Assembly (NCBI GenBank): GCA_965645245.1
Contig: OZ287073.1
Coordinates: forward strand, 2,710,070-2,730,069
Reading direction: 5' to 3'
DNA from: Massalongia carnosa
Taxonomy: Eukaryota
DNA length: 20,000 nucleotides
A program made the translations under genes and the position numbers. Numbering within the stretch: the stretch's first letter is position 1; every line of letters begins with the position of its first letter. Below the pieces are notes generated by a model. The model searched no databases and was not told the origin of the DNA. It was given only the letters and a program-made list of their open reading frames with translations. Of the stretch, positions 6,760-9,531 are shown piece after piece.

Positions 6760-7914
6760 ATGGCCACCCGCATCTCCAACAGAATCACCAAGCCTACCTC
6801 CCGCACACAAGGCAGCACTCTAGCCCGTACTAGAACTAGAGCTAGGGCAAATCTAGCCAACTCCAACCCAGACGTCGAAGTACCCGACTCACAAGACAGC
6901 ACGGCAACCCTTCAAAGCCATCCTCAACCTTCTCCTCTTCCATCTTCAGCGTTTAATTCCTCCTCACAAGGGCCTGTTATACCGGAAACCCGTTCTCGCA
7001 CCCCTGATGACATTATTGAACTTAGAGCACAACGCGAAATGTCCCGCAGGGAAGCCGAGGAAAGAGAAAGAGTAAGTCTTAGGCGGGATATCGAAACCCA
7101 ACAAGCACGTGCCCGAGACGTGGTCCCTGGGCCAGTAGCCTCAGCTCAACAGCCTTCCCTATTATTTCCGACATCATTTCCACCGCATCGACCAAACTCA
7201 TTGTATACAGAAGGTATGGATCCTCGTTTTGTTTCTCTTATGAACGAATATCCCACTATCAAGCCCATATGGATAAAGCAAATCTCCGAGAATACGTTTG
7301 ACCCAATCAACATTACCAAGCTATGTACCGACATCGACGGAGTTCAAACCAACTCTAGATACGTCAAACTCGGAGAAGGTCTGGAAATCGCCACGAGAGA
7401 AGAAGATGGCTCCTTAAAAGATATCAAAGGGATAGTTCATTTGATACGATGTCTCGGGGTATATTGGATGATACTACTACACTTTGCACACCCCGGTCTC
7501 CAGATAAACCTGATGAGAGCCTTCATGGCTTATCAGGACCATCTTCTATCATTATACGCCTTCTACACCTGGGACTCGGTTCGCATCTTTCATTTGAATT
7601 TCCACAAATCTCGAGCCTTTCGCGGGATTGACAACCCGGATGGATGGAAAGAAATGGACCATTCCTTGGAAAGGCATCTTGTGCGGAAACCGTCCGCTTA
7701 CTTTGCAAAACCGGACGATAATTCTACGGCTTTCAAAACCTCAGGCGAAAAGATTATCTGTAAGAAATACAACTATGGCAAAGACTGTCCCGTATATTGT
7801 AGATTCCAACATGTGTGTGAGAAATGTGGAAAGCAACATCGGGCGATGGACTGTACAAATGGAAAAAATCAACCCTCTAACCCAAATTCGATGCCTCTCC
7901 CATCAAGGCAATGA
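6760..7914 (+). CDS. Gag-like ORF1 of the Ngaro element, 384 aa
   Basis: First ATG at 6760 (AAAAATGG). S/P/R-rich N-terminus and C-terminal CKKYNYGKDCPVYCRFQH + CEKCGKQHRAMDC (CCCH and CCHC-like zinc fingers). Confidence 0.88.
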   Translation: MATRISNRITKPTSRTQGSTLARTRTRARANLANSNPDVEVPDSQDSTATLQSHPQPSPLPSSAFNSSSQGPVIPETRSRTPDDIIELRAQREMSRREAEERERVSLRRDIETQQARARDVVPGPVASAQQPSLLFPTSFPPHRPNSLYTEGMDPRFVSLMNEYPTIKPIWIKQISENTFDPINITKLCTDIDGVQTNSRYVKLGEGLEIATREEDGSLKDIKGIVHLIRCLGVYWMILLHFAHPGLQINLMRAFMAYQDHLLSLYAFYTWDSVRIFHLNFHKSRAFRGIDNPDGWKEMDHSLERHLVRKPSAYFAKPDDNSTAFKTSGEKIICKKYNYGKDCPVYCRFQHVCEKCGKQHRAMDCTNGKNQPSNPNSMPLPSRQ

Positions 7915-9531
7915 CTAACCGCCCCATTCTTATCCATCGCGGAGTCCTTTCCATACACCTTGACGGACAATCTAACAAAGATCCCACCGGGCCCATTGAA
8001 GAAAGAAGGCTGGGAGAAACATTTGGCCAATCACCCGGATCGCACTTACACACAAACAATTATCGATATCATCACCTACGGTGCCAAAGTTGGTTATACA
8101 GGACCACATCAACTCATTATTAGCGATAATCTTGCCTCTGCAAATGAGGCACCGGAAGTTCTTACCAATGACCTCGAAGAACAAATAGCTAGTAATCGGT
8201 TGGAGAAAGTCAACAACATTCCTTCTTGCTTTATATGTTCCCCATTAGGCCTTGTACCAAAGGCTAACGGTGGTTGGCGGCGAATCCATCATCTATCGTA
8301 TCCGGAGAGTAGCTCAGTCAACGACCACATACCGGAAGACTGGGGCTCCCTGGAATATACCAGCTTCGACGAAGCCATTAGGTTGATTGAGCAACGCGGG
8401 CCAGGGTGTATTCTTATTAAAAGAGACTTTGCGGACGCTTTTCGCCACATACCAGTAGCAAAAAGCGATTGGTGGTTACTAGGTTTCAAGTGGCAGGATT
8501 CCTTTTGGATGGATAAATACTTACCCTTTGGGCTGAGAACGTCGCCGTTCCTTTTTGATCTGTTCGCGAAGGGTATCAACTGGATATTGTACAACTGTGG
8601 TTGGAAAGACGCTATTCATTACTTGGATGATTTTTTAATAATAGTCAGCACCGGACCAGATGCTGAAAAGTTTGATCAAGTTTTCCACAACATTTGTAAA
8701 GATCTTGGCAGGAAAATCAAGCTCGAAAAGAACAGAACTGGAACGACTTGCGATTTCCTCGGCATTGAAATCGATACCGCGCTCATGGAAGCACGCTTGC
8801 CTTCCGAAAAGTTACTAAAAGCAAAGACCCTAGTATCGGCAGCTTTGAATAAAAAAGCCATACCCAGGAAGGAACTCGACTCTCTTCTAGGATTCTTATG
8901 CTTTGCAGCCAGAGTGGTAAAACCAGGAAGAGCCTTTCTACGCCGTCTTTTCAATGCTACGGCAAGCGTAACCTCTAAACTAATCCATCTTAACAAGGAC
9001 ATGAGGGCTGATCTTCTATGGTGGCATCATTTCCTACCTAAATGGAATGGCATACATCTGCTCAACCGTACTAGACATACTATGAGAATATGGACAGATG
9101 CGTCCGGCTCATATGGTATGGGCGGCTTTATCCTCAGCGAGGATCAAAATTTGCATAATATACAAGCAGCCCGGCAGGCTTTTAGCACACGCTTTACTAC
9201 GCGCCTTAGGGCAAAGCATATCAACGTCAAAGAAATGACAGCAATTCTTCAAGCTATGAAAAAGTGGCTACCTATATGCAAGGGTAGTCATTTAATCCTC
9301 TATTGTGATAGCTACGCTGTCACGAAAGGAGTGAATAAAACCTCTATACGAGGCCAAGCAATGCATGCCCTGCGGGCAATTACAATGCTAGCTGCATTAC
9401 ATGATATCCAGATAGAAGCGCGATGGATATCATCCAAAGAAAATTATATTGCTGATCTCTTGTCTAGAGGACTTTTGAAGAAACTGGCTGACAAAATCCC
9501 TCAGTTTCAGGCTCTACCCTCAGCAATATAG
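7915..9531 (+). CDS. Reverse transcriptase / RNase H (pol), in frame with gag, with no 5' ATG of its own
   Basis: SPLGLVPK, WRRIHHLS, KRDFADAFRHIP, LPFGLRTSPFLF, YLDDF, WTDASG, INVKEM, YCDS, NYIADLLSR. The frame is open from immediately after the gag stop. Confidence 0.93.
   Translation, partial: LTAPFLSIAESFPYTLTDNLTKIPPGPLKKEGWEKHLANHPDRTYTQTIIDIITYGAKVGYTGPHQLIISDNLASANEAPEVLTNDLEEQIASNRLEKVNNIPSCFICSPLGLVPKANGGWRRIHHLSYPESSSVNDHIPEDWGSLEYTSFDEAIRLIEQRGPGCILIKRDFADAFRHIPVAKSDWWLLGFKWQDSFWMDKYLPFGLRTSPFLFDLFAKGINWILYNCGWKDAIHYLDDFLIIVSTGPDAEKFDQVFHNICKDLGRKIKLEKNRTGTTCDFLGIEIDTALMEARLPSEKLLKAKTLVSAALNKKAIPRKELDSLLGFLCFAARVVKPGRAFLRRLFNATASVTSKLIHLNKDMRADLLWWHHFLPKWNGIHLLNRTRHTMRIWTDASGSYGMGGFILSEDQNLHNIQAARQAFSTRFTTRLRAKHINVKEMTAILQAMKKWLPICKGSHLILYCDSYAVTKGVNKTSIRGQAMHALRAITMLAALHDIQIEARWISSKENYIADLLSRGLLKKLADKIPQFQALPSAI

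Follow-up and report, generated by a model that had tools for sequence, protein, structure and literature searches.

A predicted spliced Gag-tyrosine recombinase product of a Ngaro-type retrotransposon from Massalongia carnosa

Organization of element 2

The window analysed here, a 20,000-nt stretch of Massalongia carnosa DNA (contig OZ287073.1, positions 2,710,070 to 2,730,069), contains three Ngaro-like elements. Only element 2 (W2, positions 6330-11274) is intact; the other two are referred to as copy 1 (W1) and copy 3 (W3). Element 2 is a Ngaro-type retrotransposon with a gag open reading frame (ORF), a pol ORF for reverse transcriptase (RT) and RNase H, and an ORF for a tyrosine recombinase (YR). 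A first-pass annotation of the window had proposed that an intron of about 2.3 kb joins the N-terminal part of Gag (GagN) to YR. A phase-1 donor and a nucleotide-frozen acceptor, both found in relatives, support this proposal, and the GagN-YR splice is probably real in element 2. The features of the element, with the putative splice signals, are as follows; a slash within a motif or between two positions marks a proposed cut.

6330-6698, + strand, terminal repeat A1 (98.4% identity to 10726-11095; contigs of runs X1 and X3 have loose ends at about 6335)
6760-7914, + strand, gag ORF, 384 amino acids (TGA stop at 7912-7914)
6760-7213, + strand, coding part of proposed exon 1 (GagN: the ATG, 151 codons and 1 nt; many R, S, P and T residues)
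7214-7219, + strand, proposed 5′ splice site GTATGG (AAG/GTATGG), phase 1 (homologous phase-1 GT in 29 of 31 relatives)
7214-9510, + strand, proposed intron of 2297 nt, or 2291 nt with the acceptor 9504/9505, which spans the gag core and the whole of RT/RNase H
7915-9531, + strand, pol (RT and RNase H), in the gag frame after the single TGA
9487-9492, + strand, branch-point-like GCTGAC (branch A at 9491; TGA at 9489-9491 closes the YR frame upstream)
9492-10547, + strand, YR ORF, 351 codons from stop to stop, in the -1 frame relative to pol
9502-9504, + strand, candidate acceptor CAG no. 1 (N9 spacing; 13 nt past the branch A; the counterpart of the main-clade acceptor)
9508-9510, + strand, candidate acceptor CAG no. 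2 (N15 spacing; 19 nt past the branch A; the one chosen in the first-pass annotation; the counterpart of that in copies 1 and 3 and in the L008 group)
10584-10731, + strand, repeat B1 (100% identity to 11127-11274)
10726-11095, + strand, repeat A2
11127-11274, + strand, repeat B2 and element end (contig loose ends at 11270)

The repeats of element 2 are arranged in the order A-pol-B-A-B, which is the order given for Ngaro elements in the portion of PMC3783388 that was available. The pol product matched Pfam RVT_1 (E 3.6e-13) and RT_RNaseH (E 1.4e-7), and the YR ORF lies downstream of pol, both as expected of a Ngaro element. A Pfam search of element 2 gave no match to a Dam methyltransferase domain. 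The YR product matched Phage_integrase with E 4.6e-4, which is under Pfam's cut-off. Its database homologues number 1474, several of them carrying PF00589 or an integrase name, and in their alignment R175, K216, R291, W314 and Y322 are invariant or nearly so; we take these to be the YR catalytic residues. The earliest Met in the YR frame of element 2 is residue 105, where the database protein P0001 begins. A start at this first in-frame ATG would remove 104 conserved residues.

The W2 family is multicopy, since the depth of the element in contigs of X1 and X3 is about 10 times that of its flanks and the exact W2 gag protein is present on 20 contigs. Contigs of X1 also break at 7219 and 7232, at the proposed donor site, and the summed depth changes from about 20,000 to about 33,000 (positions 7122-7495), which suggests sequence variants among the element copies in this region.

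Conserved signals at the pol/YR junction and in gag

Relatives of element 2 were collected as 79 loci in a scan of metagenome contigs, with YR identities of 36-56%. The YR start was anchored in 59 of the 79 by extrapolation from tblastn matches, and these 59 loci together with the three window copies gave 58 non-redundant pol/YR junctions. The donor was examined in 31 non-redundant gag-bearing elements, and codon usage in 38 main-clade rows that align without gaps at the junction. Gag was unrecognisable by similarity in the most distant loci (L037, L063, L070, L073, L075 and others). The relatives annotated at NCBI belong to Agaricomycetes and Ustilaginomycetes.

At the junction of element 2 the annotated motif GCTGAC-N15-CAG/G is present as claimed, with GCTGAC at 9487-9492, 15 bases, CAG at 9508-9510 and G at 9511. 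The claim that the other two copies carry it with the same spacing and phase also held, and in both it stands in the same relation to the pol and YR frames:

1403-1427, + strand, GCTGAC-N15-CAG/G of degraded copy 1
18795-18819, - strand, GCTGAC-N15-CAG/G of copy 3

In all three window copies the YR frame is opened by the TGA stop within GCTGAC, and all three lack an ATG before the conserved (D/E)PPxxW block, as had been noted for element 2. Element 2 has a second candidate acceptor at 9504/9505, which is in the same phase as 9510/9511 and has the N9 spacing of most relatives. The acceptor of element 2 may be 9504/9505 instead of 9510/9511; both are in frame.

Fungal introns have the donor consensus GTRNGT or GTAYGT and a YAG acceptor that is preceded, at a distance of about 10-30 nt, by the branch point CTRAY. 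In 50 of the 58 junctions the stop upstream of the YR frame lies inside the motif [AG]CT[AG]A[CT], as GCTGAC (18 junctions), GCTAAC (14), ACTAAC (9), ACTGAC (6) or GCTAAT (3). Four of the eight exceptions (L005, L010, L022 and L036) are without the motif and look rearranged, and a fifth (L028) is cut by the end of its locus. L037 and L075 have CTAAC and then CAG nearby, yet another stop lies closer to the YR block, and L040 has no recognisable CTRAC. In the 50 junctions with the motif, the first AG at least 8 nt from the branch A is 13 nt away in 41, 16 nt in one, 17 nt in one and 19 nt in seven, and the acceptor trinucleotide is CAG in 48 and TAG in two. Exon 2 would start at YR codon position 2 in 49 of these 50. 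These 50 junctions pair a CTRAY with a YAG 13-19 nt away, as fungal introns do.

The signal codons are constrained in their nucleotides more than in the residues they encode. In the 38 aligned rows the first branch codon is GCT in 24 and ACT in 14, with a third-position entropy of 0 though the amino acid varies. The second is GAC (18), AAC (18) or AAT (2), and the acceptor codon is CAG in 37. Third-position entropy at the signal codons is 0 to 0.3 bits, against about 1.5-1.9 bits at neighbouring four-fold sites. The ADALSR motif 12 codons upstream, which is equally conserved, served as a control: its Ala is encoded by GCA (14), GCT (9), GCG (8) or GCC (6) and its Asp by GAT (26) or GAC (10). 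Across pol, Gln is CAA in 349 cases and CAG in 299, and GCT accounts for 21% of the codons for Ala and ACT for 19% of those for Thr. At the start of the YR block, too, the Gln codon is mixed (CAG 19, CAA 15). It had been allowed that a protein motif, ADxxPxLQ, might fully explain the conservation of the junction. This explanation fails, as the residues A/T and D/N vary while xCT-RAC and CAG are fixed and neighbouring synonymous sites are saturated. Since third positions of the signal codons are frozen while amino acids and neighbouring codons vary, the constraint, as judged from these codon comparisons, is on RNA or DNA sequence, and its form is that of a putative fungal branch point and 3′ splice site. 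It is the relatives, not the three window copies alone, that lift these signals above chance.

In gag of element 2, AAG/GTATGG would be cut between 7213 and 7214. Position 7213 is the first position of a gag codon, which agrees with the annotated phase 1. Copies 1 and 3 are both cut within pol and have no gag, so the donor can be tested only in relatives. The choice of donor had been rated the weakest part of the proposal, and conservation of a phase-1 donor among relatives had been named as a check on it; 29 of the 31 gag-bearing elements have a homologous phase-1 GT. Its hexamer is GTATGT in 11 elements, GTACGT in 8, GTAATG in 5, and GTACTA, GTAATA, GTACCT, GTAGGT and GTATGG (W2) in one each. 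The GT is absent in L014, which has GGC, and in L032, a frameshifted copy.

The best phase-1 GT within a 160-nt span was taken as the site in each element, and the presence of a GT alone is therefore weak evidence. The weight of the donor evidence rests instead on the exactness of GTAYGT, on bases kept under a varying residue and on a low background. The 19 exact GTAYGT hexamers stand at one homologous gag codon. The residue after the donor Gly varies (Met in 12, Thr in 10, Asn in 6) while the bases are kept; of the 10 Thr codons there 8 are ACG, which makes up 14% of Thr codons across pol. Outside this site GTAYGT occurs 9 times in 98.8 kb of these elements (0.09 per kb). L006 has a further phase-1 GTACGT in gag. 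The donors thus agree with the fungal consensus and, like the junction signals in the codon controls, are conserved beyond coding need when set against the hexamer background. In most relatives the tblastn matches to W2 gag start at residue 152-164, which is the proposed donor position. On this comparison gag is made up of a variable N-terminal part and a conserved core, with the putative donor at their boundary.

Joining 6760-7213 to 9511-10547 gives, as predicted, 1491 nt with no internal stop, encoding 496 amino acids with the junction ...NSLYTE-G-STLSNIGRDPP. A junction at 9504/9505 instead gives 498 amino acids and is likewise open. The joined frames are open because the two sites agree in phase. 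In 23 loci homologous introns were predicted, of 2291-3072 nt, and their junction peptides were computed.

Routes to recombinase expression

In the mechanism that these signals suggest, the full-length RNA of element 2 would serve as genome and as messenger RNA (mRNA) for Gag. Gag-Pol would come from the same RNA, probably by readthrough of the single TGA at 7912-7914; a single in-frame stop between gag and pol, found in W2 and in 11 of 27 relatives, fits such readthrough. A fraction of the full-length RNA would be spliced from AAG/GTATGG (7213/7214), at the boundary of the variable Gag N-terminus and the conserved core, to a CAG acceptor 13 or 19 nt past the branch A at 9491, that is to 9504/9505 or 9510/9511. 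This would remove about 2.3 kb, comprising the gag core and RT/RNase H, and would join the gag AUG and 151 codons to the YR frame. The product would be a GagN-YR protein of 496 or 498 amino acids. The branch site would double as pol codons for (A/T)(D/N), and its T[GA]A would shut the YR frame upstream, so that unspliced RNA should give no YR without recoding. GagN would supply the start codon, and perhaps nuclear import or tethering to Gag or to complementary DNA (cDNA).

Some database proteins resemble such a product. P0018 (513 amino acids) aligns over residues 32-110 to W2 gag residues 78-150 (E 6e-7). The alignment stops two residues before the donor codon, and 27 residues later EDPPESWY and the whole YR follow. 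Its sibling P0121, on a 28-kb contig, has the same GagN-like N-terminus joined to the YR block. P0039, a metagenome protein of 394 amino acids, has 53 residues ahead of the YR block without the usual stop. No GagN-YR fusion of the W2 family itself was found among the YR homologues or the run contigs. A search of a representative database with gag residues 1-152 returned P0144 and two weak low-complexity matches and nothing else, a search with P0018 residues 1-136 returned only P0018 itself, and tblastn with the N-termini of P0018, P0039 and P0169 produced no useful match in the 79 loci.

Several observations weigh against a GagN-YR splice. An intron of 2.3-3.1 kb is long for a fungus. The donors of W2 (GTATGG) and of its nearest clade (GTAATG, GTAATA) fit the consensus less well than those of the main clade; such weak donors would, as this suggests, suit the partial splicing that a retroelement needs. 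P0018 and P0121 are either contiguous ORFs, that is retro-copied spliced RNA, or gene models that contain an intron. The contigs of X1, X3, X5 and X6 have no joint across 7214-9510; they are probably DNA and uninformative on expression. A search of sequencing runs listed no RNA run that contains the element. The loci are akin to each other and come from few samples, so that the counts given above are of non-independent events. Splicing by the spliceosome is something we infer from conserved signals and not something observed in RNA. The remaining adverse points each favour a rival explanation and are taken up with it.

A -1 frameshift or other recoding in the pol/YR overlap (9492-9531) would make a Gag-Pol-YR polyprotein and leave the splice-like motifs incidental. 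In nearly all relatives YR is in the -1 frame relative to pol, and the overlap is present in every case. In the group of L008, four loci have a canonical in-frame heptamer in an overlap of 19-22 nt. In three of them (L008, L009 and L011) it is A_AAT_TTA, 12 nt after the CTAAC stop and directly before CAG or TAG and the pol stop. This is the heptamer of the gag-pol frameshift site of Rous sarcoma virus (RSV), and the subgroup might use frameshifting alongside or in place of splicing. Yet L013, an intact-looking relative of L008, has lost A_AAT_TTA and kept CTAAC and CAG, and heptamers occur in just 11 of 50 junctions, in non-homologous places except in the L008 group. The overlaps of W1, W2 and W3 have no X_XXY_YYZ heptamer, so that the frameshift which the first-pass annotation had set against splicing is poorly supported in element 2. 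Frameshifting also accounts for neither the frozen synonymous sites of xCT-RAC and CAG nor the conserved phase-1 GTAYGT in gag, and we regard it as unlikely here.

The acceptor could also be real and be used with another donor, either GTAAGT at 7072, a site in the 5′ leader or a short intron in pol, so that a product other than the 151-codon GagN-YR would result. The site GTAAGT at 7072 fits the donor consensus perfectly, and P0144 (114 amino acids, on two contigs) implies its use, as it consists of gag residues 1-103 followed by KVWILVLFLL and a stop, read from 7211 in another frame. P0144 looks like the result of removing 7072-7210 (GTAAGT...ACAG, 139 nt) and represents either a predicted small intron or genomic copies of a cryptically spliced RNA. 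Such a removal destroys gag and cannot reach YR. The 7072 donor is in phase 0, as had been stated; joined to either AG it enters the pol frame and meets a stop after 6-8 codons. P0018, moreover, aligns through gag residues 78-150, beyond 7072. For a leader donor, about a quarter of the relatives have an ATG 1-4 codons ahead of the YR block, where the Gag fusion would perhaps be needless, but in W2 a leader-spliced RNA would have no ATG to begin YR. No short-intron donor is conserved in pol, where a phase-1 GT[AG]NG lies 40-300 nt upstream in only 12 of 50 junctions and at scattered places. Across clades it is the phase-1 site homologous to 7214 that is conserved as a donor, and another donor seems a little less likely even than recoding.

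Least likely of the three is that there is no splicing at all and that the motifs are kept for RNA structure, packaging, or a recombinase or primer site, with YR made by internal or non-AUG initiation, by reinitiation or from its own transcript. Some relatives do have ATG, CTG or ATC right ahead of QPP. This codon is not conserved as a start, being ATG, CTG, ATC, TTC or TTA, and initiation at the first in-frame ATG of W2 would cost the 104 conserved residues mentioned above. Both motifs fit the fungal 5′ and branch/3′ splice consensus in compatible phases at ORF boundaries, and they stand exactly where fusion would rescue a YR frame whose conserved block is preceded by no ATG.

The GagN-YR splice therefore remains our preferred reading of element 2. 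On a balance tipped only slightly in its favour, splicing from a gag donor would be the ancestral and general route of YR expression in this large fungal Ngaro lineage, always giving GagN-YR. The spliced RNA, which keeps both terminal repeats, could then be copied and inserted, seeding non-autonomous elements such as P0018, P0121 and perhaps P0039.

The gag/pol boundary differs between clades. In the main clade (L018-L076) gag ends in a conserved ...CGTTAG, which is followed by an unconserved pyrimidine-rich spacer with stops, about 210 to about 450 nt long among the loci listed, and a conserved TGTTAG|C stands right before the conserved pol start. The W2 clade differs in having a single in-frame gag/pol stop. 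Seven main-clade loci have pol in the +1 frame relative to gag without any overlap, and their Pol expression is therefore accounted for neither by readthrough nor by frameshifting. A candidate small intron between gag and pol was found in one main-clade relative only, L039. NCBI models of related elements (Collybiopsis, Ganoderma, Mycena, Panaeolus, Ustilago and others; for example P0162 and P0169) are RT-YR fusions or YR proteins with long non-RT N-termini, and in P0162 a shortened RNase H part is joined to the YR block. As P0162 and the RT-YR fusion models show, gene predictors patch the pol/YR junction inconsistently.

Copies 1 and 3 are only 55-61% identical in protein to element 2. Copy 1 (+ strand, about 1-2450) is degraded and begins at pol residue 275, where the window starts. 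In copy 3 (- strand, 19821-17778) telomere repeats cut off pol at residue 190, and the YR has a 1-nt indel near 18700. The window ends in TTAGGG repeats, perfect from about 19823, and the pol match of copy 3 stops at 19821, a few bases before them; it appears that the telomere caps a broken Ngaro copy directly. Host-like ORFs between the elements, and direct repeats in the window, are as follows.

1006-1138, a pair of 50-nt direct repeats in the RNase H region of degraded copy 1
3362-3709, + strand, host-like ORF, UstYa-family fragment (E 7e-13)
4005-4874, a pair of 122-nt direct repeats, 748 nt apart
5198-6151, - strand, host-like ankyrin-repeat ORFs
13460-13987, + strand, host-like SWIM zinc-finger ORF, which may be transposase-derived
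15553-15778, a pair of 42-nt direct repeats, 184 nt apart

Relation to known systems

Element 2 resembles the fungal Ngaro elements (order DIRS) in its gag, its RT/RNase H without methyltransferase, its YR after pol and its A-pol-B-A-B repeats, as far as these are described in the available part of PMC3783388. The same part of that source says of the Ngaro YR ORF only that it may be in frame or "frameshifted" and overlapping. A word search for a natural intron or splicing in DIRS, Ngaro or Crypton elements found none in PMC3783388, PMC8547959, PMC7192593, PMC13465315, PMC3266345 and PMC6681497 or in the listed titles, a scope outside which Goodwin and Poulter 2004 and later Poulter reviews may discuss YR expression. 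For YR retrotransposons (DIRS, Ngaro, PAT and VIPER), the literature examined leaves the expression of an out-of-frame, overlapping YR at "frameshifted/overlapping". A conserved intron with a Gag-derived first exon would be a concrete and testable mechanism, and, if true, the first description in the DIRS order of a natural expression strategy based on splicing.

If true, it would also explain the missing start codons and the out-of-frame position of the YR ORFs here. The expected protein is a GagN-YR of about 55 kDa and not a Gag-Pol-YR polyprotein, and processed, pol-less derivative elements are also predicted. Weak splice sites would let the element adjust how much recombinase it makes relative to its structural and replicative proteins. 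For annotation of these common basidiomycete repeats, the rule would be a phase-1 GTAYGT in gag together with CTRAC-N9-15-CAG at the end of pol.

Supply of an AUG by splicing, as proposed here, is familiar from avian leukosis virus (ALV) and RSV, whose env mRNA carries the first gag codons. In rice tungro bacilliform virus (RTBV) a multi-kilobase intron is removed and a short leader ORF is fused to ORF IV. Unlike the predicted GagN-YR, ALV env and RTBV ORF IV borrow just a few codons, and these downstream genes do not encode an integration enzyme.

Plant Ty1/Copia elements use a conserved alternative splicing of the genomic RNA to make shGAG, a Gag-only RNA, according to the part of PMC5580714 available. 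The predicted splice of element 2 is like this case and that of BARE (PMC5580714 and PMC3735527, both in part) in that splicing of genomic RNA would set the product ratio of a compact retroelement. Ty1/Copia and BARE make a Gag-only mRNA in this way, whereas here the gag core and pol would be removed to express a downstream enzyme as a fusion.

Among the cases examined, the closest likeness is to the SD′ splicing of murine leukaemia virus (MLV). There, as given in the accessible portion of PMC10496198, an alternative donor in gag is joined to an acceptor in pol and yields P50, which consists of MA, p12 and part of CA followed in frame by the last 116 integrase residues; the spliced SD′ RNA itself behaves as a retroelement (SDARE). 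Element 2 has the same arrangement at the sequence level, with a candidate donor in gag, a candidate acceptor at the 3′ end of pol and an in-frame product. In both, a part of Gag would be fused in frame to an integration enzyme, a likeness of mechanism and not of descent. The systems differ in that full MLV integrase comes from Gag-Pol and P50 is accessory, whereas element 2 would depend on the splice, mainly or entirely, for its whole recombinase. A fungal host and a tyrosine recombinase in place of a DDE integrase are further differences.

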